A stretch of 58,727 nt of DNA from an uncultured Thermoproteaceae archaeon (GCA_964575955.1 CAZNTG010000008.1:1-58727), one strand, 5' to 3'. Shown: positions 31,619 through 58,727, numbered from the stretch's first letter. Notes: a model not told the origin generated them from the letters alone. Numbers and translations are program-made.

Positions 31619-31620
31619 CT

Positions 31621-35613: not shown

Positions 35614-35961
35614 ACGCCTAAATGCTCACTACGTCATGCATCCTCAGATATGTACATAGCATACTGTAATTGATGTAAACACAAAGTCAGTTTAAGCAAT
35701 AGTCTTTGAGTTGTGTATAAAGGAATTGTCAATCACGTTGTCATTAGCTAGGAAGAGTTGCTGAGAGCTAACTCATGTTGATTTCCTCTCACTTGAGTTA
35801 TCATTATGGCGCCCTATTATAAACACTAGTAATAACTTAAATCTCTTATCTTAATTCTTAATTGCCGCTATATGTTGTGCTCAAGCAATATTTCTGATAG
35901 GCGCAGCACACTATGGAATTGCTGTGTCGGCTATAGTTTACTATAGATTAAAGCTGGGGTA

Positions 35962-36771
35962 TTATGAATATTTTATAAGAGTTAGAGTTTGGATAGTATG
36001 TTTAGTAGCATATGCTCTACCTGGGGGCATCTTTGCCTCAAGCTCCCGTATAACCAAGTCATCTTGAGTCATTAGGTAGTACACGTATCTTCTCAGTATT
36101 AGCTCTGGCAAGCTGCGTTGCGCTGTTACGTGGTTAACATATTGCCATGTCTTTACGAGGCTATTCACATGTTTGAGATATTTTGCAAGTGCTGTCTCGT
36201 CTCTTGTCCTAGCCTTGTTGACTATCAGGACAATGTTCTCAACTTCTCGATACTCCTTAAGTAACTGAACGTGTTTAGCGAAGTAGCTTAAGCATTCGCT
36301 AGTCTCCTCAGCCACGAATGCAATAACATCTGCAGCTGTGAGCACGGTATTTACAGGATCTACTATGCGACATGCAGGCATGTCAACGATCACATATGCT
36401 CCAAGTACCTTAGCGATCCTGCGAACCAACATACACAGCCTCTTCCAGTCAATTTTCGAAACCTCTTCAGGTCTAGCTTGACCTGCAGGTATGAGAACGA
36501 TGTTGTCCCTACCCTCAATGCCATGCAAGACGTCACGTAGCTTGCATTTGCCCAGGAGGTAGTCAAGTATACCATAGCTGTGCCTCCCTGGCCTCCTAAC
36601 AAACTCACCAATGGTCTCAAACAGTAGGTGTAGATAATCCATGTCTATGGATAGGTCAAGATAGACAACGGGATAACCATGTAAATCAGCGAATATTGTC
36701 GTCAATAGGCTGAGAGTTGTCTTGCCCGTACCACCCTTCTCACCACTGTAGATAGCTACAACCCTACCCAC
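35962..36771 (-). CDS. ParA/MinD-family ATPase
   Basis: GTG at 36771: GRVVAIYSGEKGGTGKTT, YLDL, IVDMP, IVNK. Confidence 0.85.
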   Translation of the reverse strand: MGRVVAIYSGEKGGTGKTTLSLLTTIFADLHGYPVVYLDLSIDMDYLHLLFETIGEFVRRPGRHSYGILDYLLGKCKLRDVLHGIEGRDNIVLIPAGQARPEEVSKIDWKRLCMLVRRIAKVLGAYVIVDMPACRIVDPVNTVLTAADVIAFVAEETSECLSYFAKHVQLLKEYREVENIVLIVNKARTRDETALAKYLKHVNSLVKTWQYVNHVTAQRSLPELILRRYVYYLMTQDDLVIRELEAKMPPGRAYATKHTIQTLTLIKYS

Positions 36772-36804
36772 GTAGAGACCCAACTTAAAACTCGACCCGT
36801 CCAC

Positions 36805-37263
36805 ATGACCCCCACGGGGAGGAGCATAGACCTGGAAAAGATTAGGAAAAAGTTGGAAGAAGCGAAGACGCTTGAAGAGAAGAGGCTGATCATAGAGGAG
36901 TTGCGTGACTACAGGCAGTACCTCAGAGAGAAGCTCGGTAGGAGGGAGAGTACGATTCTCGGTCTTCTCATCGCAACAATAGTTACAGTACCACTGCAAG
37001 CACTGACACTTACACCTAAAGTAGTGACAATGGTACTACCCCTCATATATGCAGCTGCACTAGTCTACGCTGGGTATCTAAAGAACATGTGTGAGACCCT
37101 GGAAGAGAAAATAAGGGGGCTGTACGACATTACTCTTGACCCACCCATGAGCGAGAAACACGAGATGAAGGATAGGACATGTGATCTAGCATTTTGGACA
37201 ATGCTTGTAATAACGATCATTTCAATAATAATCGCACTGATAAAACTGGGAGTAATACCGTGA
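36805..37263 (+). CDS. Three-TM membrane protein (start uncertain)
   Basis: Charged N-terminus, 2 TM, C-terminal TM DLAFW...KLGVIP. Confidence 0.65.
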   Translation: MTPTGRSIDLEKIRKKLEEAKTLEEKRLIIEELRDYRQYLREKLGRRESTILGLLIATIVTVPLQALTLTPKVVTMVLPLIYAAALVYAGYLKNMCETLEEKIRGLYDITLDPPMSEKHEMKDRTCDLAFWTMLVITIISIIIALIKLGVIP

Positions 37264-37379
37264 GAAGCATGTTGCCAATAGGTGAGAGATTCCTAATCAT
37301 GTTATTCATAATAGGGATGGCATTTGCAGTAGTCACCATAGTAGCATGCTTAGCAGGGCTAGGAATAGTACACATATGA
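37260..37379 (+). CDS. 39-aa single-TM micropeptide
   Basis: GTGA overlap with the upstream stop and ATGA overlap with the next ORF. Confidence 0.5.
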   Translation: MRSMLPIGERFLIMLFIIGMAFAVVTIVACLAGLGIVHI

Positions 37380-37495
37380 CAGACAGAAAGCACGACCCAG
37401 AAGACAGGACATACGACCTGGCATTCTGGACAGCACTAGCAGTAACCATAATCTCGATAATTATCGCACTAGCGAAGCTGGGCATAATACCATGA
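37376..37495 (+). CDS. 39-aa single-TM micropeptide, paralog of the 36805 ORF C-terminus
   Basis: MTDRKHDPEDRTYDLAFWTALAVTIISIIIALAKLGIIP; many synonymous differences from the upstream copy. Confidence 0.6.
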   Translation: MTDRKHDPEDRTYDLAFWTALAVTIISIIIALAKLGIIP

Positions 37496-37566
37496 GGAGC
37501 ATGTTGCTATAGTCCTCTCAAAACCTCTGTAGCCTCCCTCCCCCTCTTTTTACTTCCCCCATATTC

Positions 37567-38004
37567 ATGACCCCCACGGAGATTGAGATTATCAGGAGGT
37601 TGAGTGAGCGTGATGTTGAGCTTGCTGTAGAGTTTGCATTATCTGAGCTTGCTGCTATAGCTGAGGAGATTAGGAGTCTGAAGGTTCTGCTGCTTGGTAA
37701 TGTTATTGGCTCTGCAGGTGCTGCAGTAGTCATGAAGATTCTTGCACTTCCCCTACTAGCCAAGGCTGCTGCAGTGACGATACTCGCAGTGACGATAGTG
37801 ATAGTGTTAGTGCTGATACGTAAAGCAGTGATTAAGAGAGAGCTCATCCTGAGAACACTGCTACAGGCACTGGAGGACAGTTCTAGAAATCGAAACCAAT
37901 ATAATGACTGTGACTGTAGTTACCACATGCGTGAGCTCTTCTGGGCTTGTCTTGTAACTGCAATCGCGTGGATAATAGTTACCCTACTGATAGTACTGGG
38001 GTGA
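37567..38004 (+). CDS. Three-TM membrane protein
   Basis: Same architecture as the 36805 ORF; ends ELFW...LIVLG. Confidence 0.65.
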   Translation: MTPTEIEIIRRLSERDVELAVEFALSELAAIAEEIRSLKVLLLGNVIGSAGAAVVMKILALPLLAKAAAVTILAVTIVIVLVLIRKAVIKRELILRTLLQALEDSSRNRNQYNDCDCSYHMRELFWACLVTAIAWIIVTLLIVLG

Positions 38005-38008
38005 GACC

Positions 38009-38086
38009 ATGGACAAGTTGATACTTGCGCTACTACTTGGAATAATAGCTGCGACACTTGCATCATTGATAATAATATTCGGCTAG
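38009..38086 (+). CDS. 25-aa single-TM micropeptide
   Basis: GGGGTGA SD, then MDKLILALLLGIIAATLASLIIIFG. Confidence 0.4.
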   Translation: MDKLILALLLGIIAATLASLIIIFG

Positions 38087-38143
38087 TGTGTAGATCCTGA
38101 AAATTCGGTCCTTTCCCCCTCCTTTTCTTTTTTCTAAACCTCC

Positions 38144-38782
38144 ATGATTGTACTGTTTACTGGCCTTCCTGGGAGTGGCAAGACCACTGTCTTAGCAACT
38201 TTCCTGAAGTACCTCCTAGAAGAGACTAGGCTTAGGGTGTGTACAGTCGATCTAGACTGTGTGACAGCTAAGTTAACAAGGATTCTTACGCCAGGTGTGG
38301 AGGTCCTATGTGATCTCTATGACGTTGTTGAGGATGTTTGCAACAATGTTACACATGTTGTCTTATCTGACCGCCATGTCCATGTTCCTGTTAGATTAGG
38401 ACAGCGTAGACAGGACAGTGACATTCTAGACCTGTTACAGGAGCTGTACAGTGTCCTAGAGGTCGATCTTGTACTTGTGGACAGCGTTGAGCCTCAGTTG
38501 GCATCTATAGCAGATAGGAGAACATTCAAGATAGTACATGTTGTTAGGCCAGACATCGCGGAATATTACGACCTTGCTAGGCAGGAAGACATCATCGTGA
38601 TAAACAGCGTCGTTCCAAGCATCGAGCCTAAGCTTAAACATAGGAAGGTGCTGTACTTACATTTTGATCCTGTTCTTAAGATCTGTCTAGACCTCAAGAC
38701 TCTGCCAAGCATACTCCTGAAAGATGTAACAAGATTTTGCAAGTCACTCCTATCCCTCTTAAAATCCGAGGCAAAGACATGA
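38144..38782 (+). CDS. Divergent ParA/MinD-like P-loop NTPase
   Basis: GLPGSGKTT, TVDLD, LVLVDS, VINS, HFDP. Confidence 0.7.
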   Translation: MIVLFTGLPGSGKTTVLATFLKYLLEETRLRVCTVDLDCVTAKLTRILTPGVEVLCDLYDVVEDVCNNVTHVVLSDRHVHVPVRLGQRRQDSDILDLLQELYSVLEVDLVLVDSVEPQLASIADRRTFKIVHVVRPDIAEYYDLARQEDIIVINSVVPSIEPKLKHRKVLYLHFDPVLKICLDLKTLPSILLKDVTRFCKSLLSLLKSEAKT

Positions 38783-39132
38783 GGCTCCTCGGTAGGAAGG
38801 GCAAGGGCAAGGATAGACTAGACGCGGAGATTCTTGAGGATGTTGACCTCTCAGCAATAGTAGAACAGAAGCGTAGACAACAACAGGAGGCTCCGCAAGA
38901 AGCCAAGCAGGAGGCTAGGCAGGAAGCTGAGGAGAAGGCTGAGATTGCTGAGGCATATACTCCAGATCTTGATGATGCTCTACAGGAGAGGTTCTTTGAG
39001 TGGCTTGTAGAGCAGGCAGTTAAGAATGATAGAGACTACAAGCTTCTCCTAGAGGCTATAGATAGGGTGAGCATTAACAAGCTCAGAATGCTGTGTAGAA
39101 CACTTCTCAAAAAGCTTAGAGAGAGGTCCTAG
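38779..39132 (+). CDS. Hypothetical protein, possible ParA partner
   Basis: ATGA coupling to the NTPase stop; disordered EAxQ repeats and a helical C-terminus. Confidence 0.6.
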   Translation: MRLLGRKGKGKDRLDAEILEDVDLSAIVEQKRRQQQEAPQEAKQEARQEAEEKAEIAEAYTPDLDDALQERFFEWLVEQAVKNDRDYKLLLEAIDRVSINKLRMLCRTLLKKLRERS

Positions 39133-44243: not shown

Positions 44244-44984
44244 ATGGGCAAGTCATGTATTCAAGTCCTAAGGGAGTTGTATAGTATTCTCGTAAAGCTG
44301 AGAGATAAGGATCTTGTAACGCGTGAGGATCTTCAGAGAGTTAGGAAGCTGCTGGAAGAGACTGCCAAGAGCACGTACATCACAATCTCGCTGAGCCGTT
44401 ACCGTGAGCTATGTGATGTCTGTCCTAGCCCTGAGGAGCTCAGCAGATGTCTCAAATTCGTGAAAGAGCTTCTGGAGGAAATCGAGACTGAGGTCCCAGT
44501 CCCTGGATATGCGTTGGTGAAGTACATTCGCAGGGTGGAGCAGTATCTGACCGAGGTTGAGCGTAGGAGAACCGTAGTGTCTCGCCGCCTCTATGAGGAG
44601 GTCGCTAAAGAGCGTGATGAGCTCAAGAGGCGTGTTGTCGAGCTTGAGCGTGAGGTTGAGCTTCTCAGGAGGCTCGAGGACACGTATGTTAGGCAGGTTG
44701 TTGAGCTTCTAGACGAGAGGGAGAGGCTTCTACACGAGCTTGAGCAGGCGAGGATGCTCATGTCCAAGTACAGGACACTGTACGAGACCTACCTCAGCCT
44801 ATGCATGTGCCTCGCATGTGCAGCATCTAGACTCTTGGAGGAGAATGCTAGACTGTGCGAGGAGGCTCACCACCTCAGGACTGAGGTTGAGATGCTTAGA
44901 GAGGTGCTGAACGTGGTGAGGGAGACAGTGTCTGACAGGGCTAGGAGGAGGATCCTAGAGAAGGTGAGGAAGACCCTACAGTGA
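44244..44984 (+). CDS. Coiled-coil protein
   Basis: Long heptad-rich E/R/L sequence. Confidence 0.75.
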   Translation: MGKSCIQVLRELYSILVKLRDKDLVTREDLQRVRKLLEETAKSTYITISLSRYRELCDVCPSPEELSRCLKFVKELLEEIETEVPVPGYALVKYIRRVEQYLTEVERRRTVVSRRLYEEVAKERDELKRRVVELEREVELLRRLEDTYVRQVVELLDERERLLHELEQARMLMSKYRTLYETYLSLCMCLACAASRLLEENARLCEEAHHLRTEVEMLREVLNVVRETVSDRARRRILEKVRKTLQ

Positions 44985-44988: not shown

Positions 44989-45225
44989 ATGAGGCTAGTC
45001 GAGAAGATTGTCAAGGAGACACGTGCCAGAGCAATGATGAGCATCTTGACCAAGCTCATCGACCTGCTAAATGGCTTAGCAGCACTTACGCTGCTCGACA
45101 AGGATGTTGATACCACACTGAGGATCCTGGACATGCAGCATAGCCTAATCAAGATGCTGCAAGACAAGTGGACTCTCCTGCAAGAACTTGAGGACATGGA
45201 AGAGGACGAACAACCCCCATCCTGA
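44989..45225 (+). CDS. Small helical hypothetical protein
   Basis: Follows the coiled-coil gene closely. Confidence 0.55.
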   Translation: MRLVEKIVKETRARAMMSILTKLIDLLNGLAALTLLDKDVDTTLRILDMQHSLIKMLQDKWTLLQELEDMEEDEQPPS

Positions 45226-45348
45226 ACATCCATTCTTAAAGCTTTGAGAACGTCCATTCTTAACGTCTTAAGAATGGGGCTTGAGAAAGCCCACGGCCGT
45301 GTAGGACCATTCTTAAGGCTTTGAGAATGGAGGTTCAGGATGGGGGTT
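45212..45348. repeat. 39-bp inverted repeat enclosing three CCATTCTTAA-N4-TTRAGAA palindromes
   Basis: Arms 45212-45250 and 45310-45348 (4 mismatches); units at 45230, 45254 and 45307. Confidence 0.9.
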
Positions 45349-45379: not shown

Positions 45380-45643
45380 CTAGACGTGTGGCACTGTTAG
45401 GAAGAAGGCCAGCATGAGCCAGAGGAGGCTAAGTATAAACAGTATTAGCAGTATCAGCCTGCCCTTGCTCACCTTAGCCTCTTCTCGATTCACTGAGCTT
45501 CTCGTAATTATCCTCCAGTAGGCTGCTGAGGGAACACCATCTTCCTCCTCTTCGCGCTTCTTCCTCTTTCTACGCTCCTCCTCTTCCTCTTCCATCATCT
45601 GTAGCATTATTTCGTAATCTATCTCCTCTCTCCATCTTCTCAT
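45380..45643 (-). CDS. Small charged protein with C-terminal TM
   Basis: Poly-E/K/R tract and hydrophobic tail. Confidence 0.55.
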   Translation of the reverse strand: MRRWREEIDYEIMLQMMEEEEEERRKRKKREEEEDGVPSAAYWRIITRSSVNREEAKVSKGRLILLILFILSLLWLMLAFFLTVPHV

Positions 45644-45649: not shown

Positions 45650-47080
45650 CTACTTCTCTGGTGCTTCCTCTAGTCTCTTTCTCTCTAATCTCTGCTGTAC
45701 CTGCTGCACAATTTCTCTCTTCCTGGAGTAATATTCTGCTGCTGTGAATCTTATTCCTGCTTCAGCAGCTATTACTAGGTCCAGGAAGTTGAGTGGTGTG
45801 AATTTCTTCCACATTACTACTGCCACTGTTACTAGTGGTGTTATTGATCCTAGTGCTGCGAGTATTAGGAGGGTTGGTGCCTGTATTAGGAGTGCATTCA
45901 GTCCCTGTATGGCATCTAGTGCAATTTTCTGTGCTAGTGCACTATAGTTCACGTGGCAGTGGAATAGCCATCCAAAGATGTTGCACTTGACGTACTCTGC
46001 GGCTAGGCTTGCAGCGGCGGCTGCTGCATGTAGGAGAGTCTTGACTCCCCATGCAGCAACCTCACCTGCATGTACATACATTCCACCTATCAGCTGTGTT
46101 ACCACTGCACCTAGGAGGGTGCCAACTAGCAGTCCCCAGAACGTGCCTTCTATCGCAATGCCGAGACTGCGTAATGCGCGTATACGTACCTCCTGAAGTG
46201 CGATGCCTATCGGTAGGCAGATCTGCATTATCAGTGCAATGAGCAGTTTCAGATAGAGCATGAGTGCTACAAATCCTGTAGTTATGATGTGTAGCTGCAA
46301 TATCGATCCTGGAATCTTGCTCACGGCTGGGATGATGATGCCTGCAAGCGGCACCAAGAGTGGCAGTACTGTCAGCACGGTCATGATTCCCCACGCGACA
46401 AATCCTGCATAGAAGACATTCCAGTTCGTGACTGTGAACACAAGCTGGTTCCAGACGGATATTATGCTTGGCAGCAGGACTAGGAGGATGCCCGCAACAC
46501 AGCACTTTATCAAGAGTCCTCCCGATCTTCTAAACGCCTCGGCTGGGTCTCTCCCACTCGTGATCTCTCCAACAATGCTCCACAGGGAGACTGCTGCTAG
46601 GAACGCTATGACGCTTGCATTTACGAGGGTCACAGCTCCACGTGGCCCTAGCCAGCTGCTGGGCGCGAAGCACCTCAACTCTGGGACTCCAACAAAGATC
46701 TGCTGAATGATGTCTGGACAGACTCCTGTACCCGTGGGCACGGGTAGGAACGTGACGTTTGTAGCATTACCTGTAATAGATGTGTTTAGAATGTTTATGA
46801 ATGTTGAGACTGTGCCTGCGGTAGATGCAATACTCTTAACGCTCTTCACAATGAGCGTGTTCGTTCTGTCAAGCTTCTTCGATATGTTCATTAGAAGCCT
46901 ATTCTCCTCCTCTAACAGCTTAACAATCTTGTCTAGACGCTGCAGTATTGGCTTAACGTTAACCTCACACTTACAGTGACATACACACACGACCTTGGTC
47001 ACATTGCTACTATGGGCAATCCCCGACATGACTAGCAGAGCTAGGACAGCTAGGACAGATATCAGAGCCAGCCCACGCAT
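45650..47080 (-). CDS. Polytopic membrane protein, VirB6/TrbL-like topology
   Basis: ATG at 47080; signal peptide, coiled-coil, then many TMs including ..QICLPIGIAL. Confidence 0.55.
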   Translation of the reverse strand: MRGLALISVLAVLALLVMSGIAHSSNVTKVVCVCHCKCEVNVKPILQRLDKIVKLLEEENRLLMNISKKLDRTNTLIVKSVKSIASTAGTVSTFINILNTSITGNATNVTFLPVPTGTGVCPDIIQQIFVGVPELRCFAPSSWLGPRGAVTLVNASVIAFLAAVSLWSIVGEITSGRDPAEAFRRSGGLLIKCCVAGILLVLLPSIISVWNQLVFTVTNWNVFYAGFVAWGIMTVLTVLPLLVPLAGIIIPAVSKIPGSILQLHIITTGFVALMLYLKLLIALIMQICLPIGIALQEVRIRALRSLGIAIEGTFWGLLVGTLLGAVVTQLIGGMYVHAGEVAAWGVKTLLHAAAAAASLAAEYVKCNIFGWLFHCHVNYSALAQKIALDAIQGLNALLIQAPTLLILAALGSITPLVTVAVVMWKKFTPLNFLDLVIAAEAGIRFTAAEYYSRKREIVQQVQQRLERKRLEEAPEK

Positions 47081-47099
47081 AGGAGTGGAGAAAAGAAAA

Positions 47100-47252: not shown

Positions 47253-47370
47253 ACAGAGAGCTCTCGAAGCTATCTTTTAAGTCCTTTTCTTAGTTGTCTC
47301 GGCTTATAGGTGTATTATGCCGAGTGCAGCTTGGGTGGATCGAGTAGTATATCGTCTATCTGTCTTAAAG

Positions 47371-47811: not shown

Positions 47812-47872
47812 GCTGAACCGCAAGTTTTAAGGACAGGGACAGAGCTTAATAACGACCTTCAATCCTATAAGA

Positions 47873-47920
47873 CCATTCTTAAAGTTTTGAGAAGACCATT
47901 CTTAAAGACGTTAAGAGTGG
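47873..47920. repeat. Two tandem CCATTCTTAA palindromic units
   Basis: CCATTCTTAAagttTTGAGAA and CCATTCTTAAagacgTTAAGAGTGG. Confidence 0.85.
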
Positions 47921-48431: not shown

Positions 48432-49448
48432 TCACTGTACTGGCTCTAGTATGAGCTTGCTCATGTCGCCTTCCTTAGCGAAGTCTATCCTGAACAGGTA
48501 GTGCTTGATCGCTGTCATCCTTGCCTTCTTTATTGCGAGGTAGCGCTCTAGCTTTTTGCTTGTCTTGACGTCGCTCATCCACGTCTCCATTACGACGTCT
48601 GCAATGTGCTCGGCTCCGAAGCCGAAGAGGCCCTTGGTCGTGGCTGCGTATTGGCAGGTCAGTAACGCCGTGATGTTATTCCTGTGGTAGGTAAGCTTCA
48701 GCTGGTAGCTGTATTTGCGTGCCATTGCTGGCTTATCAACCCAGAAAGTTGACATTGAGTCTATGATTAGGCGTATATGTTGACCCCTCTCAACCTCAAG
48801 AACCTCATAAGCCTTGTCTAGCGCATATATCAGCGTGTCAATACTCCATGGAGCGTAGATCTTCCTGCTCGTCTTCTTTGTCCTGCTCTCCTTTTCCTCC
48901 CTCTCCTCCTGCATGGCAAGCTTAGCTACGCGACTCAGACCGAAGAGGTCTATAACAACGATGTCAGGTGTCTTACTAGGCTTCTCAAAAGTCCACTCCT
49001 TGTCTTTGCGATCCCACTGTACGACCTCTGCAAGGTTCAGGATCTTGAACTGCATGAAGTCTATCCCGAACTGTCTTGCCTGTGTAACAATGTCATAGAA
49101 CTCCTGCTCAGTAGTGACGTAGATGACCTTGTCATCCCCCGCTATGAGACCAGCAGCTGCGAAGTGAATCGCTAGGATACTCTTACCAGTACCCGGCTCA
49201 CCACCAATAACAACCCAACTACCCTTAGGAACACCACCCTCAAGAGCATCATCAAGCCTCTCTATCCCAAAGCTCACTCTGGTGACCTTGACCTTCCCCT
49301 CCCCTATCTCTTCCCTACCCTTCTTGACCTTCCTGCGCTTGGTCTTCTTCTCGGTACCCTCCTCCTCGACCTCTTCCACAACTATGCCCTTCTCCTCAGC
49401 AACATCGAGCCCCGTCTTGAACTCGATTTTCTCGGACCTCTCCGTCAC
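48432..49448 (-). CDS. KaiC-domain ATPase, PAE1156-like subfamily, with acidic/basic N-terminal extension
   Basis: GGEPGTGKS, IDSMSTFWVDKPAMARKYSY, EHIAD, KKARMT; GTG at 49448 chosen because the upstream sequence is hairpin-rich. Confidence 0.85.
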   Translation of the reverse strand: MTERSEKIEFKTGLDVAEEKGIVVEEVEEEGTEKKTKRRKVKKGREEIGEGKVKVTRVSFGIERLDDALEGGVPKGSWVVIGGEPGTGKSILAIHFAAAGLIAGDDKVIYVTTEQEFYDIVTQARQFGIDFMQFKILNLAEVVQWDRKDKEWTFEKPSKTPDIVVIDLFGLSRVAKLAMQEEREEKESRTKKTSRKIYAPWSIDTLIYALDKAYEVLEVERGQHIRLIIDSMSTFWVDKPAMARKYSYQLKLTYHRNNITALLTCQYAATTKGLFGFGAEHIADVVMETWMSDVKTSKKLERYLAIKKARMTAIKHYLFRIDFAKEGDMSKLILEPVQ

Positions 49449-49610
49449 CTCTCCCCGGGCTGGAAGGCCCGGGGTTTCTTTCATCCTCTGTGCGGGCTCT
49501 CTCACCTTTTTGAGACCCGCATGATCAGGCATCATCTGTCAGTCCCCGGGGTGTGGGGTACCCCCAGACTCGGGCAATGCCCTCATCGTCTGGGGAGACA
49601 GACACCTCGC
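49449..49610 (-). ncRNA. Structured 5' leader with kink-turn
   Basis: ccccagac-GAT-GA-gggc-att-gccc-GA-gtctgggg plus two further GC hairpins; CTTAAAAA box upstream. Confidence 0.6.
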
Positions 49611-50123: not shown

Positions 50124-51545
50124 ATGTTCTTAACACACCTCAGTCCCAGGGAGGTCCTAGAGAAACTCAAGCCTCCACGTGAGGCAGTTTCCGACCCTAC
50201 GCCTGACGAGGACCTTGTCGAGTCTATCAGGAACGTTGGTGTCAAGGTTCCAATTATTGTAGATAGGAATTACGTTATCATTGATGGTGTTAGGAGGTTC
50301 AACGCCATTAGGAAACTGCTACAGGAGGGGGTCGAGCTTCCCCTAATACCTGTCCTAATCTTGAACGATGTTGACTATGAGGCAAGTCCAGAAGAGGCGC
50401 TGCTATGTGCGTTCTTAGTTAACAGGTACAGGAGGGGTGGACGTGATGATCACTTCAACACGGACCTAATCGCGGATCTGCTGCTAAAGCTTGCACTCAG
50501 GATAGCTAAGCCAGTAGAGAGGCAGGACCTTAGGAGAGGGACAATACCTGAGAGGGTACGTAGAGAGCTTGCAAAGCTTACAGGTCTATCACGTACACAT
50601 GTCTACGAGCTTCTTCAGAAGGCTCTTGCTAGGAGGAGGCTTGGTGTAAAGTCACCATGTACTACTGCTCAGGTTTGTCAGAGTTGCAGAGTTGAAAGTT
50701 CCACAGCACATCCTGAAGATGTTTCAACTCTGCAGACACATTCTATTCCTCGTCATGTCTCTGTGCAGAGTCTGCGCGTTGGTGAACATGGCTGTGGTGT
50801 AATACATGGTCGGTGTACAATTGGTACGCGACCATCAGGAAGGGGTGAGCATCAGGAAGGTGAGGACCTTAGTAGAGTCGTAGATGCTGTCTGTACTGCA
50901 GCTGAGAGACTTGGCAGTGGCTTTCTTAGAAAGGTTGCGCTAGGCGAGCTACCTACCAGGGTAGCTGAGGAGGCTGGAAGGATCTTGAATAGGAGCACAC
51001 GCACAGTCTTCGAGTACTGGTACAGACACCGTGATGCTATTGTTGAGGAGGCTAGGAGGAGGTACCTTGCCGACCTCAAGGTTCCCAAATCCAAGGCTGA
51101 GCTATTTCTGAGACTACCTGAAGATTTCATCAGATGGCTCAGACAGCTGTCGCCTTGGCTCTTGAAGAGGGTCGTAGAGCACGTTGATCCTGACGTTGTT
51201 GAGCAGGCAGCTAGGCTATTTCAGCATGGTCGTGAACGTGATTCTCTCCGCATTCTCGTAGAGGCTGCACGTGGCAGAGACATCTCCAGGGTAGACCTTC
51301 CCGACCATGTCATGGACATGGTTATCGAGCTTGGGACCTATGTCGATCTAGATCTTGCTCTTAGAGCCATAGTTGAGGTTGGTGCTGCATTTCTACGACT
51401 ACTACAGCACAAGGCAAGGTCCGTACCTGATCCAAGAACATTCTGCGAGTCAGCCATCAGGCAGGTCCTGTCACTATCCTCGATCAAGGATGTTCAGGAC
51501 CTGTGGCATGAGGTGAGGGATATCCTCGACATGGTGAAGCCATGA
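50124..51545 (+). CDS. ParB/Srx N-terminal domain plus HTH protein
   Basis: LVESIRNVGVKVPIIV...IIDGVRRFNA; ELAKLTGLSRTHV. Confidence 0.85.
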   Translation: MFLTHLSPREVLEKLKPPREAVSDPTPDEDLVESIRNVGVKVPIIVDRNYVIIDGVRRFNAIRKLLQEGVELPLIPVLILNDVDYEASPEEALLCAFLVNRYRRGGRDDHFNTDLIADLLLKLALRIAKPVERQDLRRGTIPERVRRELAKLTGLSRTHVYELLQKALARRRLGVKSPCTTAQVCQSCRVESSTAHPEDVSTLQTHSIPRHVSVQSLRVGEHGCGVIHGRCTIGTRPSGRGEHQEGEDLSRVVDAVCTAAERLGSGFLRKVALGELPTRVAEEAGRILNRSTRTVFEYWYRHRDAIVEEARRRYLADLKVPKSKAELFLRLPEDFIRWLRQLSPWLLKRVVEHVDPDVVEQAARLFQHGRERDSLRILVEAARGRDISRVDLPDHVMDMVIELGTYVDLDLALRAIVEVGAAFLRLLQHKARSVPDPRTFCESAIRQVLSLSSIKDVQDLWHEVRDILDMVKP

Positions 51546-53749: not shown

Positions 53750-54511
53750 ATGACCCCCACGGAGAGGAGACTGCCACTGTTACATGAGGTTGTTGATCTT
53801 GATGAGACTAAGCGCAGCATAGATAGGCTGTCTAGGAGAGAGGTCCTGCAGATTCTTGGTGATGACTTTGTGCAGCATGATGGTCATGTGTTTCATATCG
53901 TGCATATCAGGGATAGGGTGCCCGTTACCGTGCTGTCAGCAGTAGCTGAATGTCCATGGACAACGGTTGTTGCTAGGCTACTCGCAGAGAGGTATGGTGC
54001 GGAGGAGAATACGCTATACGTGCCTGTTAACCCGCACGCACTACTGTATGGCCGCCTCATACATGAGAAGTACCTGACATTTCTCGAAGAGGAGCTTAAC
54101 ATACCTGTCGAGGTTGAGCTTGAGGCTGAGGCTCAGATCAATGGTAGGTCTGTAAAGATTGTCGGTAGGGTAGACGCATTAATGCCAGGCAGTGGACGCA
54201 TAGTTGTCCTAGAGGTCAAGACTGGCAGCAAGATATCTCTAAGACACATGGTGCAGGTGTGGACCTATGTCCACATGTTGAACATGTACGTAGAGGACAA
54301 GATTGCTAAACCACTCTTCCTAACGCCCAGAGGCTTTGAGAAAGTCGACAAGTACTACGCCTGGAGAGACATCCTACAGCTAATCTCTCTCGTACTATAC
54401 ATCATCGATAAGGATGGAGACGTCACATGGGACAGAAAGAGAAACTGCCCCAGAACAAGATGCCCATACTATCCATGGTGCCCAAAGGCAGTTAAACTAG
54501 ACCTGGCGTAA
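53750..54511 (+). CDS. Stand-alone Cas4-like exonuclease (start uncertain)
   Basis: ECP, GRLIH, GRVDAL, LEVKTG, QVWTY, CPRTRCPYYPWC. Confidence 0.85.
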   Translation: MTPTERRLPLLHEVVDLDETKRSIDRLSRREVLQILGDDFVQHDGHVFHIVHIRDRVPVTVLSAVAECPWTTVVARLLAERYGAEENTLYVPVNPHALLYGRLIHEKYLTFLEEELNIPVEVELEAEAQINGRSVKIVGRVDALMPGSGRIVVLEVKTGSKISLRHMVQVWTYVHMLNMYVEDKIAKPLFLTPRGFEKVDKYYAWRDILQLISLVLYIIDKDGDVTWDRKRNCPRTRCPYYPWCPKAVKLDLA

Positions 54512-54677: not shown

Positions 54678-55895
54678 ATGCGCATAAAATCGGCTGTTGA
54701 AGTTCTGTCTCTCGAGCTTGAATCCTCACCTGAACTATATGATATATTTAGGAGGATTGTGGAAGCTAAGGTACGTGTTATATACTCAACAAAGATGTAC
54801 AATGTACCTACACTAGTCCACATGTACAAAAGTGGTGAACTATACGTTGATCCTGATCTCAAGCGTGAGTATACCTGGTCCATTGTCAAGGCTTCACGTT
54901 TCATCGAAAGTCTAATACTTGGACTTCCAATACCACCAATATTTGTCATCTACCTACATGATAGGGGGCTTGTCGTAGATGGTTTTCACAGACTTGAAAC
55001 TTTGAGGCTATTCTACAGTAATGAGCTTAAACTAAGGGGCATAGTACTGCGAGAGCTTGAGGATAAGGTCTACACAGAGCTGGATGAGAATCTTCGCAAT
55101 AGGCTAGATCGTACAGCTATTCCAGTAGTTGAAGTCCATGTAGAACCTCCAGATCCCTCTACCACAATGTTCGTGGTCTATGAAATATTCAGGAGGTTGA
55201 ACCTCGGCGCCAAGCCCTTAACCACCTTACAAGTAATTTTCTGTGGCCTACCTACACCTGCAGTGCGTGCAGTAAAGGAGCTTCTACAGGATGAGAATAT
55301 GCAGACACTGCTCAATCCGAGACTCTCAGAGACACGTAACATGATGGACAGGTATCTGGTTCTAATGCTCATGGTCTGCATATACTGGAACAGGCTGATG
55401 AACTTGACATCTGGGGGAAAGGTAGCACATGCTAGAGCAATAGCTAGATTCCTAAGAGCTTCCGAAGAAGAGGTCGCCAAGGTGAAGGAACGAGTTAAGG
55501 AACTTGCAGAACTTGCACTGAGGATAGGCCTGTCTCGTCGATACTTCCTCTTGACGACATACGGCCTCTCCCGCAGATATACAATCATATCGTCTACACT
55601 TTTCTTAGTGATAATGTATCTCATTCATGAACTTGAGTTACATCTAGGCAAGGATGTCCTCATCGAGCACAGGAGCACAGTACTACACTCAATAGAGAGA
55701 TTCTTCCGTGAGACAACTAGAAAGTTCGTGATAGATGATAGGGAGGTTGACCTAAAGACCTTAATTGCATACATTAGTCGGCAAGGTGGAGACAAGCTAC
55801 TCCACGTGCTCTACAACACATTTAAGCAACATGTGCTACACTCACTCAGCAGCGAAGAAAAGGACTTAAAAGATAGCTTCAAGAACTCTCTATAG
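54678..55895 (+). CDS. DUF262 (GmrSD-N/ParB-like) domain protein
   Basis: REYTW, FIESLILGLPIPPIF, VVDGFHRL, IFRRLNLGAKPL. Confidence 0.85.
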   Translation: MRIKSAVEVLSLELESSPELYDIFRRIVEAKVRVIYSTKMYNVPTLVHMYKSGELYVDPDLKREYTWSIVKASRFIESLILGLPIPPIFVIYLHDRGLVVDGFHRLETLRLFYSNELKLRGIVLRELEDKVYTELDENLRNRLDRTAIPVVEVHVEPPDPSTTMFVVYEIFRRLNLGAKPLTTLQVIFCGLPTPAVRAVKELLQDENMQTLLNPRLSETRNMMDRYLVLMLMVCIYWNRLMNLTSGGKVAHARAIARFLRASEEEVAKVKERVKELAELALRIGLSRRYFLLTTYGLSRRYTIISSTLFLVIMYLIHELELHLGKDVLIEHRSTVLHSIERFFRETTRKFVIDDREVDLKTLIAYISRQGGDKLLHVLYNTFKQHVLHSLSSEEKDLKDSFKNSL

Positions 55896-56353: not shown

Positions 56354-57094
56354 CTACACATGTGTCGAACCTAGCCTCTCCCTCTCAAGTACTTTCCAGC
56401 ACTTACAAAATATCTTGTGTACTATGTCGATTGTTCCCTCAATAATGTAAGATACTAGTGCTATTCTTGGTCTGCTAGCTGAAAGTGCTAGCTCATACAC
56501 CAACCTTCTCACTCTCCGTACATGCTTTATGACCCACTTGATACGTTTCTCGATGTCTCTCTTTGGTCGATCCTGTTCATAGTAGTAGTCATGTAGCTCT
56601 TCACCAATTCTATACATGAGTCCGATCCACCCAATCTTCTCATCCTTCTTCAAGATTCCCCTCTTCCTTAAACTACGCAGATGTTCTAATACTCTGTCCA
56701 CGACAATTCTTGTCACTCTATGTCCAGTCGGTACGATGCCCCACAGTAGTGTTGAGAGAGCTTTCACACTATCAAGCACTGCTCTCCAAGCTTCTTCACA
56801 AGCTTCGTCGAGCATACCCTCCTGCAACAGCTTTACCGCCTTTTCAATAGTTGAGCAAGCCCTCTCTGCATACCTCACGGCGGGTAGTGAGGAACGCTCA
56901 ACATCACCTCTACGTCGAAGCTCCACAGGAGGAGCCGTGTAGATTGGCCTGACAGCTGAGATAACACGTGGAAAGGCTAGTTGACGACAGAGAAGCTCGC
57001 TAAGCACAACACCTGGAAACTCTGCAACAACCCTAGCATCAGACACAAGCACACTAGCCCCTCCACGAGTCTCCACACTGGAGGACACACCCAT
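56354..57094 (-). CDS. PaREP1/HEPN-superfamily protein
   Basis: ACEEAWRAV..VKAL, H, ELHDYYYE. Confidence 0.75.
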   Translation of the reverse strand: MGVSSSVETRGGASVLVSDARVVAEFPGVVLSELLCRQLAFPRVISAVRPIYTAPPVELRRRGDVERSSLPAVRYAERACSTIEKAVKLLQEGMLDEACEEAWRAVLDSVKALSTLLWGIVPTGHRVTRIVVDRVLEHLRSLRKRGILKKDEKIGWIGLMYRIGEELHDYYYEQDRPKRDIEKRIKWVIKHVRRVRRLVYELALSASRPRIALVSYIIEGTIDIVHKIFCKCWKVLERERLGSTHV

Positions 57095-57272: not shown

Positions 57273-57360
57273 TGTGAAAAATCTTCACATACATGTTAAT
57301 ATGTGCCTAGGCTGGTAGACATGGCACATCTATCAGTATCCTGAACCTTGCCACCCCACT

Positions 57361-58074
57361 CTACGAGACACTCCACCTCCCCCTTCCCAGTGGCTCCTCT
57401 CTTCTAATACCTAGCCTACGAACATCTTCCTGGATCTTTCTGACCTCGCTGTACAGCTCATCTCCAAGTACATCCCTAAGAGCATCTTCGTAGGACATCT
57501 CAGGGTATAGACCGAGAAGTTTCAAGACGTCTCTCAGAGACATGTCGAGCAGAAGAACCTTCTTATCATCATCTAGGTTAAGCAGATCGTATACCAGGTC
57601 CCTAATTTCTAGACCGTAGATCTTGGCTAGGTTATGTAGCCTACGAACGTAGTCTTCACATACCTCGGAGATGCCATACTCATCACATAGAGCAACAATC
57701 TTCTTCACAATGTCCGACCTAGAGAACCGGTCGTGTTCTAGTCTTAGCGTGACAACATCCTCATCACATGCATGTACTTTCACGTCCGTGATATCTCTAA
57801 GATGACGTGATATATCGTGGTCATACGGTCCATACTTGTATATCTTGAAGTTGAATAGCTCAACCATCGGACTAATCTCAAGCTTTGAACCATCTCTCGT
57901 CAACGTGGCAGCACACAGAAGCTTCTGTATGGAAGTCTCATTGACAGTCTTCAGAAGCAGGATAGCAAGCTCAGTAAACAACCTACGCAGCCTAGCCTTA
58001 ACATCCTCAGGCAAACCCCTAACACGCCCAAACAAGACAACCTCCACCACACACCGAGCTAATAAACATACCAT
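57361..58074 (-). CDS. Panacea/SocA (DUF4065)-like antitoxin-domain protein
   Basis: IQKLL...FKIYKYGPYDHDI. Confidence 0.55.
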   Translation of the reverse strand: MVCLLARCVVEVVLFGRVRGLPEDVKARLRRLFTELAILLLKTVNETSIQKLLCAATLTRDGSKLEISPMVELFNFKIYKYGPYDHDISRHLRDITDVKVHACDEDVVTLRLEHDRFSRSDIVKKIVALCDEYGISEVCEDYVRRLHNLAKIYGLEIRDLVYDLLNLDDDKKVLLLDMSLRDVLKLLGLYPEMSYEDALRDVLGDELYSEVRKIQEDVRRLGIRREEPLGRGRWSVS

Positions 58075-58100
58075 TCACCTAAAAAGCCTGACCCCCGTGA

Positions 58101-58133
58101 CCCCCTTCTCCTCATCTCGATGACCCTCCTCAT
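58101..58133. repeat. 33-bp direct repeat of 47114-47146
   Basis: CCCCCTTCTCCTCATCTCGATGAyCCTCyTCAT, 2 mismatches. Confidence 0.85.
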
Positions 58134-58147
58134 CTTGGATATTCCCC

Positions 58148-58175
58148 GAACGTCCATTCTTAACGTCTTTAAGAG
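58148..58175. repeat. Sixth CCATTCTTAA palindromic unit
   Basis: GAACGTCCATTCTTAACGTCTT is identical to 45248-45269. Confidence 0.85.
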
Positions 58176-58236
58176 TTAGTTGTAATTTCTGGGGTTCGTG
58201 TTTTATTTATATTTTCCTCCTTTTCTTGCCTTTTCT

Positions 58237-58488
58237 GTGAGTTGGAGGTTAGTTGTGAAGAGGTCATTTATTAGAGATTTAAAAGGGCTTGACCCAAATG
58301 TTAGGGATAGGATAATTGAGGCTATTGATGAGATTGTGAGAAATCCATACGTGGGAAAGAAGCTTGACAATTTTTACAGTTGGAGAGTTGGTGATTACCG
58401 TATCATCTATACCATAGATGAGGAGAGGCGTACAGTTGTGCTACTGTGGGTTGGTCATAGAAGATCCATCTACAGGAGATTGAGATAG
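58237..58488 (+). CDS. relE: RelE/ParE-family toxin
   Basis: GKKL..YSWRVGDYRIIY.ID...VGHRRSIY; GTG at 58237. Confidence 0.92.
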   Translation: MSWRLVVKRSFIRDLKGLDPNVRDRIIEAIDEIVRNPYVGKKLDNFYSWRVGDYRIIYTIDEERRTVVLLWVGHRRSIYRRLR

Positions 58489-58680
58489 CTAGTAGTCCTC
58501 CTCCACAAGCTTCTTGAGATCTCTCACACTTTCTATAGACACCTCCTCTTCCCGCAACCTCCTCTCCAACTCAGGCCTAAGCAACTCAACCTCCAGCCTA
58601 TCAATGAGATCTATAATCTCCTCAGCATTCCTCAATATCCTATTCACAATACTGTAAATCGCATCAACATCCAGAGACAT
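58489..58680 (-). CDS. Small acidic protein, possible RelB-like antitoxin
   Basis: 63 aa, acidic C-terminus EEEVSIESVRDLKKLVEE; convergent with relE. Confidence 0.45.
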   Translation of the reverse strand: MSLDVDAIYSIVNRILRNAEEIIDLIDRLEVELLRPELERRLREEEVSIESVRDLKKLVEEDY

Positions 58681-58727
58681 CAAGAACAATAATAACACCA
58701 AGACCATAATAGGCATTACGCCCAAGA

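Follow-up and report, generated by a model that had tools for sequence, protein, structure and literature searches.

Gene content and organization

The window analyzed here, a stretch of 58,727 nucleotides, is an entire contig (C8) of a 15-contig, 1.52-Mb metagenome bin from an uncultured Thermoprotei archaeon with an AT-rich genome (33% GC). Host-like genes on the left were followed by a GC-rich block, hereafter the element, which runs up to the contig end and carries 28 ORFs (Table 1). GC content rose from 32% to 47% at approximately 36,013 and remained high: in 1-kb windows it was 0.26–0.41 left of 36 kb and 0.42–0.53 from there to the contig end, and by segment it was 0.319 (1–35568), 0.342 (35569–36013), and 0.473 (36014–58727). 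GC3 was 0.186 for host ORFs (n = 24) versus 0.505 for element ORFs (n = 28). A 4-mer Markov model of the window gave a log-ratio that turned neutral at 35.6 kb and a change point at 36,013, and the final ~16 codons of the ParA-like ORF consisted of AT-rich sequence. Positions 36000–58000 alone exceeded 42% GC over several kb; elsewhere in the assembly only three isolated 2-kb windows did, all on contig C6. These values bore out the composition shift claimed in the initial annotation and its junction near 36020 at the ParA C-terminus.

Table 1. Features of the junction and the element in window coordinates.
Feature	Position	Strand	Evidence or remark
Junction zone	35569..36013	.	445 bp non-coding, intermediate composition, last host-like base to change point
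MinD/ParA-like P-loop ATPase	35962..36999	-	Pfam CbiA 26.7 bits; NCBIfam archaeal MinD 4.6e-11
152-aa membrane protein	36805..37263	+	No family; no PDB sequence match
145-aa membrane protein, three hydrophobic segments	37567..38004	+	ATGACCCCCACGG start; no family
212-aa small P-loop NTPase	38144..38782	+	Walker-A-region matches only: APS_kinase, AAA_22, weak MinD
131-aa orphan	38737..39132	+	tblastx 42% to L034 (G002:C80)
Internally deleted HerA/VirB4-superfamily ATPase gene, 217 aa	39129..39782	-	Alignment to host DUF87 ATPase and P0007
Two small overlapping ORFs, 112 and 85 aa	39815..40389	+	Hydrophobic by sequence; no family
Two orphans, 223 and 420 aa	40508..42425	+	No family (Pfam, PHROGs, NCBIfam, PADLOC)
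Three small proteins, 170, 171, and 190 aa	42432..44143	-	No family
246-aa E/R/L-rich orphan	44244..44984	+	Weak LmuB-like match only, 17.8 bits
Imperfect palindrome, 137 nt	45212..45348	.	Four CCATTCTTAA motifs; convergent intergenic gap
87-aa protein, C-terminal membrane anchor	45380..45643	-	Sequence, hydropathy
Signature membrane protein, 513 aa as listed	45650..47191	-	Alignment, hydropathy
52-nt inverted repeat, left copy	47245..47296	.	Partner 55850–55901, 90% complementary
150-aa ORF	47371-47823	-	Downstream of second CCATTCTTAA cluster
Second CCATTCTTAA cluster	47862..47920	.	Upstream of the 150-aa ORF
KaiC-type (RadA-paralogue-like) ATPase	48432..49535	-	KaiC_arch_4 263.6 bits
473-aa ParB_N protein	50124..51545	+	Pfam ParB_N 23.0 bits, below cut-off; PHROG 4715 1.4e-10
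XPD/DinG-type superfamily-2 helicase, 730 aa	51542..53734	+	Helicase_C_2 39.5 bits; PHROG 2488 2e-23
Cas4-like PD-(D/E)xK nuclease	53750..54511	+	PDDEXK_1 34.9 bits; Cas_Cas4 28.7 bits
DUF262 (GmrSD_N) protein	54678..55895	+	GmrSD_N 55.2 bits; PADLOC NsnA 1.6e-43
HEPN/PaREP1-family protein	56354..57094	-	PaREP1 26.4 bits; HEPN 22.9 bits
237-aa orphan	57361..58074	-	Leader upstream copies membrane-protein gene leader
Third CCATTCTTAA site	58143..58174	.	Divergent promoter gap
RelE/ParE-family toxin gene	58198..58488	+	ParE_toxin 47.1 bits; PHROG RelE-like 5e-19

The genes were mostly orphans, as the initial annotation had stated: 16 of the 28 ORFs had no Pfam family at E ≤ 0.01 and 8 passed the curated cut-off, while PHROGs and NCBIfam each named 7. 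The partition and helicase/Cas4 genes that it had named were detected as ParA/CbiA, ParB_N, Helicase_C_2/DEAD, and Cas4/PDDEXK. Its "transfer-like" genes corresponded to an internally deleted HerA/VirB4-type gene and family-less membrane proteins, with no intact VirB4, VirD4, or TraG in the window and no demonstrable T4SS homology of the membrane proteins; of its "TA modules", the RelE/ParE toxin domain (47 bits) was present, but no antitoxin gene was found upstream by ORF and sequence inspection. A replication initiator was not recognized in the element. Comparison of the element with its own genome gave only five paralogue hits, of ParA, KaiC, ParB_N, and HerA type.

In the left-hand part, the MinD/ParA-like ATPase probably starts near 36770, giving ~268 aa, and showed 33–35% identity with chromosomal homologues of congeners and at G000:C15, all of which start with MSAK(I/V)VAFYSGEKGG. 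The host's own ParA homologue adjoins a type-IV-pilus-like locus. The 152-aa membrane protein, whose N-terminal ~45 residues are the most widely common piece of the element family, had tblastx matches of 43–60% to short contigs of four congeners (G001, G002, G003, and G006). Hydropathy scanning found one segment in the 112-aa ORF; the 85-aa ORF fell outside the non-overlapping set of the scan. The 420-aa orphan had no match in any of five congeners, and the 223-aa orphan gave an AF2 model with pLDDT 55 and no PDB fold match; Atlas features pointed weakly to Cas8/CsaX-like clusters (0.91), which we treat as a lead only. Judged from their sequences, the 170- and 171-aa proteins look like paralogues and, with the 190-aa protein, are possible DNA-binding regulators, and the 246-aa orphan looks like a coiled coil.

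The 513-aa signature membrane protein probably starts at M38. A hydrophobic segment lies at its N-terminus, NxS/T sequons are abundant in its N-terminal half, about 7 hydrophobic segments are spread across its C-terminal two thirds, and it carries a CxCxCHC motif. It had 4 relatives among 1.84 billion representatives, and among 120 genomes of the class its profile occurred in only two, both of this genus. Searches of plasmids, phages, IMG/VR, and PDB gave no match; the AF2 model (pLDDT 51) was too poor for fold comparison.

In the right-hand part, the KaiC-type ATPase is xenologous to a core gene of the host: it showed 76% amino acid and 78% nucleotide identity with the host copy (C3:91714-92778), had a GC content of 51% versus 41%, and was placed within a 100/100 clade of genus g1 (+g3) copies. 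The ParB_N protein consists of an N-terminal ParB_N domain and a C-terminal part of ~330 aa without a known family, and its residues 6–149 showed 37–39% identity with 176–217-aa open frames in five of five congeners. The helicase had one relative (45%) among 5.8 billion proteins, and the Cas4-like nuclease showed 65% amino acid identity with G003:C453. The helicase match to PADLOC typeIV_DinG (70 bits), with the Cas4-like gene following, resembles type IV CRISPR-Cas (Csf4/DinG), but this match spans the generic C-terminal helicase domain only, and neither Csf1–3 and Csf5 genes nor a CRISPR array were found in the element. NsnA, matched by the DUF262 protein, is a candidate defence protein. The RelE/ParE toxin gene probably starts with GTG at 58256.

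The private repeats named earlier were confirmed. The element had 7 copies of CCATTCTTAA, spread over three intergenic clusters, compared with 0 in the remaining 36 kb of the window and 20 across the other 1.46 Mb of the assembly. The ATG starts of three listed ORFs lie within ATGACCCCCACGG, for which the counts were 3 in the element against 0. The 137-nt palindrome has 39-nt arms that are 90% complementary, and its predicted DNA fold of -47.9 kcal/mol compared with -17.4 ± 2.9 in 200 shuffles (z = -10.4); it is a candidate origin, centromere, or operator. The 52-nt inverted-repeat pair flanks an 8.6-kb KaiC–ParB–helicase–Cas4–DUF262 block, and a 39-nt direct repeat (47111–47149 and 58098–58136) is common to the leaders of the signature membrane-protein gene and the 237-aa orphan.

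The deleted ATPase and known systems

The 217-aa ORF retained the N-terminal domain and C-terminal tail of a HerA/VirB4-type ATPase, and the ~400-aa Walker A/B core was absent. Its residues 1–190 aligned with residues 1–187 of a 634-aa DUF87 ATPase of the host (C9:37649-39553; 26%, 2e-12), and residues 162–217 showed 80% identity with the final 56 aa of P0007 (G002:C80), a congener's protein with P-loop_TraG, AAA_10, and DUF87 domains that is encoded on the same contig as the homologue of the 131-aa orphan. The best plasmid matches of P0007 were conjugative-plasmid ATPases of Sulfolobales, aligned over 81–86% of its length (S. shibatae B12 plasmid, 1e-16; 630-aa DUF87 protein of pNOB8, 3e-4), and bacterial TraC/VirB4/TrbE came next. 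Through this ATPase of a relative there is a distant kinship to conjugative plasmids. Fragments of the same ATPase were also present in a 4.5-kb raised-GC patch within the 621-kb contig C6.

We compared the element with Sulfolobales conjugative plasmids (pNOB8, the pKEF9/pARN/pHVE-type S. islandicus plasmids, and the S. shibatae B12 plasmid). It shares with pNOB8-type plasmids a crenarchaeal host, possible integration, many orphans, several small membrane proteins, and ParA/ParB-type genes. However, their common marker, the ~630-aa HerA/VirB4-type (DUF87) ATPase, was matched only in the relative and at only 21–25% identity, the window copy being without the core; no TraG/VirD4-type gene or tyrosine integrase was found in the element, its helicase and membrane protein matched no plasmid record, and the host belongs to another order. 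Gene order differed as well. The layout was not pNOB8-like, as previously noted. Integrative and conjugative elements (ICEs) of Nitrososphaeria are likewise integrated blocks in archaeal chromosomes with a conjugation-type ATPase ancestry, but they have an intact VirB4 and an integrase, and the assembled part of the element has neither.

According to Beltran et al. 2023 (PMC9905601), Ted and Ced are DNA-import systems of Thermoproteales and Sulfolobales, and Ted loci encode a VirB2-like pilin, a 7-TM VirB6-like protein, a VirB4-like ATPase, a MinD/ParA (VirC1-like) ATPase, and HerA. The element resembles Ted, as described there, in its MinD/ParA-like ATPase, small membrane proteins, polytopic ~7–8-TM protein, and HerA/VirB4-type remnant, whereas Ted is chromosomal and conserved and the element is foreign and patchy. 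Neither the small nor the large membrane proteins of the element had a sequence match to PDB chains, a set presumed to include the pilin structures of the Ted paper.

Distribution in relatives

A DNA search with 20 kb against 40 relatives found nothing beyond the KaiC gene and short pieces; the region is not syntenic core. Element-specific genes occurred in four of six congeneric MAGs (G001, G002, G003, and G006), all on short contigs. We regard it as unlikely that the region is a non-mobile genomic island, made up mostly of defence and DNA-repair genes and recombined in from a GC-richer congener without a plasmid or conjugative life cycle. The DUF262/NsnA-like, HEPN, RelE/ParE, and DinG–Cas4 genes are typical island cargo, the ParA-like, KaiC, and ParB_N genes are variants of genes that the genus carries on its chromosomes, genes like the ORF at 36805 adjoin fibrillarin and Trm1 in G006, and no integrase or replication gene was found; against this stand the mosaic, patchy distribution on small separate contigs, the lack of synteny with any relative's chromosome, the partition-like gene pair with iterated sites and a large palindrome, and the conjugative-plasmid ATPases as best plasmid matches of the relative's ATPase.

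Junction with host DNA

On the host side, a 98%-identical strain (run X2) diverged past 35568, and the alignment with MscS homologues of congeners ended at residue 232 (base 35565). In the junction zone there was neither an Rfam match nor a notable repeat, and direct repeats did not exceed 12 nt. In run X1, the probable source run, an independent Logan assembly by a different assembler contained a 25,931-nt contig that covered positions 30001–36839 with 0 differences and extended ~830 nt beyond the compositional break. Its depth was 18.7x versus 17.6–26.1 for the seven listed element pieces (22 for the 9.5-kb piece); these depths are similar. A further collection recorded identical versions of three proteins, MscS on the host side, the helicase, and the product of the last ORF, each on a contig of 202,211 nt, which is longer than C8. 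The join looks physical, although the same reads may underlie every assembly joining host and element. A second X1 contig, whose left flank was different, joined at 36810, and at 36839–36846 the Logan contig broke off, indicating that related elements coexist; the sequence right of 36.85 kb could be a sibling of the chromosome-joined copy. Run X2, from another study, contained both the host strain that is 98% alike and pieces resembling the element, at comparable depth; the junction was not seen in it.

Searches for an integrase gave 0 PF00589 matches across the whole assembly. The single PF16795 match fell within a hydrogenase gene. Serine recombinases were found at C3 and C6 only. The tRNA searches found none, and the repeat searches found no att repeat. 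The right end lies off the contig and no other contig in the bin had matching high-GC sequence, so the join is documented on the left side only. The earlier claim of an integrated element is supported by assembly continuity and depth, but not by an integrase, tRNA, att repeat, or right end. None of 102 host CRISPR spacers matched the element, which is neutral.

An assembly chimera, in which a free plasmid or DNA of a GC-richer co-occurring relative was misjoined to the host contig with nothing integrated, is less probable again. The genome is a metagenome bin, the GC3 values lie 32 points apart with no amelioration at all, the element terminates its contig with the remainder absent, no integration marker was found, congeners' loci reach 45–48% GC, and variants coexist in X1, where 14 of 42 contigs were only 90–95% alike and the alternative flank occurred. 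Opposed to these points are the contig that crosses the break with 0 differences, the lack of any repeated sequence there that could give a false join, depths within 20% of one another, host and element proteins each on a contig of the same size, and the second family remnant on C6. An integrated or mis-joined archaeal virus genome is very improbable: most genes are orphan, and Cas4-like nucleases, helicases, and large sequon-rich membrane proteins are common in crenarchaeal viruses, and row 8 of the Atlas structure matches of the 513-aa protein is a mostly viral cluster (TM 0.21, not meaningful), but 0 of 28 ORFs matched PHROG structural or packaging categories, tblastn of the helicase, the membrane protein, and the archaeal relatives of P0007 found no match in 50,697 phage and virus records, IMG/VR contained no relative of the element proteins searched, and the ParA/ParB-type genes and VirB4-type remnant point to a plasmid.

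Discussion

The best reading is that the sequence from about 35.57–36.01 kb to the contig end is foreign, horizontally acquired plasmid-type DNA covalently joined to the chromosome. We judge the chance somewhat better than even that it belongs to a new conjugative-plasmid-like family, as an integrated and probably non-autonomous member. The 32-point GC3 excess suggests that it arrived recently from a GC-richer host, possibly a congener. The term ICE would require functional transfer machinery, and the one transfer-type ATPase gene of the window has lost its ATPase core; an integrated remnant derived from a plasmid of a new family is the better description. In line with the proposal of an undescribed family, neither of the two signature proteins searched, helicase and membrane protein, matched a described plasmid or virus.

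In a free plasmid form, the MinD/ParA-like ATPase, the ParB_N protein, the CCATTCTTAA sites, and the palindrome may have served as a maintenance and partition apparatus. The DinG-type helicase, the Cas4 nuclease, and the captured KaiC/RadA-like ATPase might act on DNA ends during recombination-dependent replication or in the production of transfer DNA; archaeal conjugative plasmids are not known to have a relaxase. The polytopic 513-aa protein, together with the small membrane proteins, could be the remains of a mating pore once powered by the HerA/VirB4-type ATPase, and the RelE/ParE toxin, the HEPN protein, and the DUF262/NsnA-like protein may act in element stabilization or defence. The element looks like a partly decayed plasmid of an undescribed family circulating in the genus; it is probably no longer self-transmissible and, once integrated, would be copied passively along with the chromosome.

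Composition of the Block and its Host Contig

The assembly (G000) consisted of 15 contigs totaling 1.52 Mb, with 94.7% completeness and 0.5% contamination, and the window was its entire contig C8 (58,727 bp). The probable source sequencing run, X1, was labelled as a hydrothermal vent metagenome. The first 40 bases were identical in C8 and C2, and end sequences were also common to C1/C6, C7/C12, and C11/C14, indicating that contigs of this assembly end in repeats. The left 35.6 kb of the window was ordinary host DNA, with type I-A-style cas genes (Csa1, Cas4, Cas1, and Cas6), NurA/HerA, KaiC, a PLP-dependent enzyme (PALP), S-adenosylhomocysteine hydrolase, NAC, MoxR, an MFS transporter, and a MscS channel.

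At 36 kb the GC content stepped from 0.26–0.41 to 0.42–0.53, and the higher values continued to the contig end; this block was the only multi-kb stretch above 42% GC in the assembly. GC3 was 0.505 in the element ORFs (n = 28) versus 0.186 in the host ORFs (n = 24), and the coding density of the block was 86%. In a 4-mer Markov analysis, with the other 14 contigs and window 38.0–58.7 kb as the two training sets, the composition changed at 36,013; the 100-bp bins at 35.6–35.9 kb were neutral. GC, GC3, and the 4-mer change point all confirmed the composition shift reported in the initial annotation, whose junction near 36020 was right as a compositional statement.

Within the host part, approximately 6 kb had an atypical composition (GC up to 0.41, neutral 4-mer log-ratio) and sparse coding. 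The five ORFs tested in it all lacked a Pfam family, and a piece was 78% identical to contig C391 of the congeneric genome G003; the segment may be an older foreign insert. It lay directly to the right of two C/D-box sRNA-like sequences, which matched Rfam sR5/sR3 below the gathering threshold (26.9 and 23.7 bits) and showed 85–92% nucleotide conservation in congeners and a sister genus.

Locations of features in the window and of related loci (window coordinates unless a contig is named)
Feature	Location	Strand	Remark
Host DNA	1–35568		mean GC 0.319
C/D-box sRNA-like pair	24613–24665, 24694–24748	+	
Segment of atypical composition	24800–30700		
Interval between breakpoints	35569–36013		mean GC 0.342
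Block	36014–58727		mean GC 0.473
ORF36805	36805–37263	+	152-aa membrane protein
HerA/VirB4-type remnant	39129–39782	−	217 aa
420-aa orphan	41163–42425	+	
Palindrome	45212–45348		137 nt
513-aa membrane protein	45650–47191	−	
39-nt direct repeat	47111–47149, 58098–58136		90% identical
52-nt inverted repeat	47245–47296, 55850–55901		90% complementary
Raised-GC patch (L054)	G000:C6:406500–411000		4.5 kb
Frameshifted ATPase pieces	G000:C6:407034–407469		
HD-CE and DUF6084 genes (L034)	G002:C80:1358–3180		

Genes and Repeats of the Block

A Pfam family at E ≤ 0.01 was lacking for 16 of the 28 block ORFs, in agreement with the description of the genes as mostly orphans, and eight ORFs scored above the curated cut-off; PHROGs and NCBIfam each named families for seven. 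The nearest relatives of the MinD/ParA-like ATPase were chromosomal genes of the genus (33–35%). These start with MSAK(I/V)VAFYSGEKGG, so the 77-residue N-terminal extension listed for the block ORF is probably not real. The host's own ParA-like copy adjoined a type-IV-pilus-like ATPase and pilin-like genes. The block also encoded a 473-aa ParB_N protein; the ParA/MinD-like and ParB_N domains were 13 kb apart, and repeated candidate sites existed. For the helicase/Cas4 module noted initially, an XPD/DinG-type helicase and a Cas4-like nuclease were identified, together with a KaiC-type ATPase, a DUF262 protein (PADLOC NsnA match, 1.6e-43), a HEPN/PaREP1 protein, two membrane proteins of ~150 aa, a small P-loop NTPase, two more small hydrophobic ORFs, and several orphans. 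As to the proposed toxin–antitoxin modules, a RelE/ParE toxin domain was clear (PF05016, 47.1 bits versus a cut-off of 23), but no adjacent co-oriented antitoxin gene accompanied it: there was no same-strand upstream ORF of at least 25 aa, and the sole neighbor was a convergent ORF of 63–78 aa.

The 513-aa membrane protein was hydrophobic at its N-terminus (one segment) and again in its C-terminal part (about seven segments), and contained a CxCxCHC motif and numerous NxS/T sequons. Its AF2 model, from a five-row alignment, reached a pLDDT of 51, and a weak Atlas row paired it with a TrbL-bearing cluster (TM 0.25/0.53). For a 223-aa orphan (AF2 pLDDT 55), Foldseek against PDB returned nothing at E ≤ 0.001, giving no support to a PD-(D/E)xK motif that had been read in it. 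The 420-aa orphan was nearest in ESM-Atlas features to Cas8, CsaX, and Csa4-type large-subunit clusters (0.90–0.91; 171–176 features in common), a lead only, as no more than four of the ten best matches agreed on a family.

The private repeats of the initial annotation were real. The intergenic motif CCATTCTTAA occurred seven times in the block, in three clusters, versus none in the rest of the window, with 20 copies in the remaining 1.46 Mb. The sequence ATGACCCCCACGG includes the start ATG of three listed ORFs and occurred three times versus none. The palindrome had a folding energy of −47.9 kcal/mol versus −17.4 ± 2.9 for shuffled sequences. The 52-nt inverted repeat flanked the KaiC–ParB–helicase–Cas4–DUF262 genes, enclosing 8.6 kb from a 150-aa ORF through DUF262, its right copy being the 3'-terminal part of the DUF262 gene. 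This repeat showed no target-site duplication and could be an inversion relic or a cassette boundary. The 39-nt direct repeat lay in the leaders of two minus-strand genes; both copies encode K-M-[KR]-R-[IV]-I-E-M-R-R-R-G upstream of the probable real start, and it may be a common leader or regulatory element.

A Transfer ATPase Remnant and Comparison with Known Systems

The 217-aa ORF kept only the N-terminal ~190 and the C-terminal 56 residues of a HerA/VirB4-type ATPase. Its first 190 residues aligned with the first 187 of a host 634-aa DUF87 ATPase (26%, 2e-12), and its last 56 were 80% identical to the end of P0007, a 444-aa ORF with P-loop_TraG, AAA_10, and DUF87 domains on contig C80 of the congener G002. 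The frame of P0007 begins 80 nt from the end of that contig, and P0007 aligned with residues 262–631 of the same host ATPase. These alignments to both ends indicated that the window gene is a HerA/VirB4-superfamily ATPase minus ~400 central residues and both Walker motifs, still in frame. As to the transfer-like module proposed initially, this gene is of HerA/VirB4-type ancestry, but its ATPase core is lost, and the window held no intact TrbE/VirB4-like ATPase.

The best plasmid matches of P0007 were Sulfolobales conjugative plasmids, over 81–86% of its length, including the S. shibatae B12 plasmid (25%, 1e-16), S. islandicus plasmids, and the 630-aa DUF87 protein of pNOB8 (21.5%, 3e-4), followed by bacterial TraC/VirB4/TrbE. 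These similarities link the family, distantly, to crenarchaeal conjugative plasmids by way of a VirB4/HerA-type ATPase lost from the window copy. Frameshifted pieces of the element-family ATPase also occurred in the raised-GC patch on C6 (0.37–0.45), in the middle of a 621-kb contig and ~4 kb from a CRISPR array, so that the host chromosome has a second, older remnant of the family. That patch also contained a 580-aa AAA_15/AAA_21 (OLD-like) ATPase and a weak HNH-like ORF scoring just under the cut-off (21.1 versus 21.4 bits). On G002:C80, HD-CE and DUF6084 proteins, which may be defense cargo, were encoded between a homologue of a 131-aa ORF of the block and the VirB4-type ATPase.

Plasmids of the pNOB8 type have an intact TrbE/VirB4-like ATPase (DUF87, ~630 aa), whereas the window has only the core-less gene, and they showed no sequence match to the block helicase or membrane protein. 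Their TraG/VirD4-like coupling ATPase was absent from the 28 block ORFs by Pfam and NCBIfam, although the missing part of the element could hold one. In the Ted system of Thermoproteales, a pilin and a 7-TM protein are combined with two ATPases, one VirB4-like and one ParA-like (PMC9905601). The block module at 36–47 kb resembled this gene set in make-up, but the block membrane proteins queried had no sequence match in the PDB, and the AF2 model of the 513-aa protein was poor. The introduction of that paper records archaeal conjugative plasmids and ICEs from Sulfolobales and Nitrososphaeria (PMC9905601), and a limited literature search, over partial texts, returned no description of either for Thermoproteales-type archaea.

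The designation as an ICE overstated what was found, as the assembled part contained no integrase, no intact VirB4, and no VirD4/TraG. PF00589 (tyrosine recombinase) had no match in the whole of G000 at its 94.7% completeness, not even of the XerA type, and all 14 control genomes were positive. PF00239 (serine recombinase) matched only at C3 and C6, and an SSV-type integrase hint (PF16795) at C6:592–726 was spurious, lying within a [NiFe]-hydrogenase gene. The suggested search for an integrase, a tRNA, and an att repeat thus yielded none: no integrase of any kind was found in or near the assembled block, no tRNA gene in the window, and no second copy of the junction sequence in G000, the right junction being off the contig. 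No replication initiator was recognizable in the block. Among 102 host CRISPR spacers from six arrays, none matched the block over more than 19 nt, and a 39-nt match in another genome (G029) was not in an array. The lack of an integrase or replication gene would also fit a non-mobile island of acquired DNA, but we regard this reading as unlikely, the best plasmid matches of P0007 being conjugative-plasmid ATPases. The block is foreign DNA of plasmid-like character and, on present evidence, is physically continuous with the chromosome.

Probable Join to the Host Chromosome

Window 30001–50000 was compared with independently assembled (Logan) contigs of X1 and of X2, a run from another study. 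X1 is the probable source of the assembly and hence not independent data, but a different assembler was used. An X1 contig of 25,931 nt matched window 30001–36839 with 0 differences, passing the compositional break by ~830 nt. Its depth was 18.7, and depths were 17.6–26.1 for the seven element pieces listed, with 22 for the 9.5-kb one. The sequence at the break had no copy elsewhere in G000, so that repeats would not be expected to have caused a false join. In a large protein collection, proteins identical to MscS (host side), the helicase, and the last ORF all had records giving a 202,211-nt encoding contig; this common figure suggests that one contig of a further assembly carries the host gene and the element together. 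An assembly chimera, in which host and element were falsely joined, is therefore improbable, even though all the assemblies joining them may use the same reads.

The X1 contig placed host DNA on the left side of the block, whose right side lies beyond the contig; strictly, only the ParA-like gene was proven contiguous with host DNA by this contig. It broke at 36839–36846, within the stretch most conserved among related elements, and another X1 contig entered at 36810 with a different left flank absent from G000, indicating that sibling elements coexist. Possible rearrangements at a joint 47146>45248 and at loose ends 47114/47873 were rejected, since they are most simply explained by the 58.1-kb repeat region being placed on its paralogues; a joint 36859>47368 was seen in one contig only, at a depth of 2.7.

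X2 contained a host-like strain, whose MscS region differed at 10 of 545 nt, and, at similar depth, pieces resembling the element, with 1 difference in 441 nt (36933–37373) and 93–94% identity elsewhere. The X2 MscS contig diverged from the window after 35568. The MscS proteins of congeners end ~5 residues past residue 232 (base 35565), and that of G000 continues for 15, 11 more than congeners. These two observations marked a sequence breakpoint at 35568/35569, separate from the compositional change at 36013. The intervening 445 bp matched no RNA family and had no notable repeat. From the sequence comparison, the foreign DNA most likely begins at 35569, which would place the insertion in the 3' end of mscS. 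The 30 letters after the X2 divergence, a putative empty site, were absent from G000 at up to 3 mismatches. The MscS homologue of G001 and G004 (~50% aa identity, BLASTP) lay in a gene block syntenic to G000 contig C9, not C8, and contig C16 of G006 had no usable synteny with the window. Regarding the right end, no matching high-GC DNA was found at any other contig end or interior of G000; the record of the last ORF as a complete protein of 63 aa does not bear on extension beyond the contig.

Relatives and Possible Origin of the Element

Element-specific genes were found in four of six congeneric genomes, on short contigs (1–7 kb). They comprised the counterpart of the 513-aa membrane protein beside an ORF36805-like gene (G002:C172), a helicase end with Cas4 (G003:C453, 65% aa identity), the 131-aa ORF with the ATPase (G002:C80), and ORF36805-like genes in G001:C31 and G006:C109, the latter adjoining fibrillarin and Trm1. 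Gene order and combination differed between these loci and the window, indicating that the family is mosaic. The GC content of the congener loci was 36 to 48%, which makes a GC-richer congener a plausible donor. The block KaiC shared 76% protein and 78% DNA identity with the host copy on C3, had a GC content of 51% versus 41%, and had different neighbors. In a tree of 19 sequences it fell inside a 100/100 clade of genus g1 and g3 copies, without exact placement.

The 513-aa membrane-protein profile matched in 2 of 120 genomes of the class, the protein itself had four relatives among 1.84 billion representatives, and the block helicase had one relative among 5.8 billion proteins; a scan of genome contigs for relatives found only G002:C172. 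No relatives were found in IMG/VR or JGI metagenome contigs. The helicase and membrane protein had no tblastn match in 72,556 plasmid and 50,697 phage/virus records, in accordance with the initial view of the family as undescribed; no member occurs among described plasmids or viruses, and all those known so far are from this genus. A provirus is very unlikely, as no capsid or packaging genes and no likeness to known viruses were found with PHROGs on the block ORFs, virus records, or IMG/VR.

We consider it somewhat probable that the block is an integrated remnant of a new conjugative-plasmid-like family. A more elaborate reading, which we offer as speculation with the odds well against it as a whole, is that a family of conjugative plasmids native to a vent-dwelling Thermoproteales relative is glimpsed here for the first time. 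Such an element would integrate in the 3' end of a protein-coding gene, mscS, using no tyrosine recombinase, would carry out integration and transfer-DNA processing with its own ParB_N-nuclease/DinG-helicase/Cas4/KaiC-recombinase block bounded by the 52-nt inverted repeats, and would have moved very recently between congeners more than 10 GC points apart. The case comes from a metagenome-assembled genome with one end of the element missing, and the mechanism is a proposal. If the reading is true, conjugative-plasmid-like elements would extend to another crenarchaeal lineage from hydrothermal vents, and the block and its relatives would supply signature proteins with almost no relatives among billions of database sequences. 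As an example of fresh transfer between species the block is unusually clean, with a GC3 of 0.51 in a genome of 0.19 and a captured paralogue of a host-type recombinase, and the in-frame loss of its transfer ATPase core shows the decay of such elements after integration.
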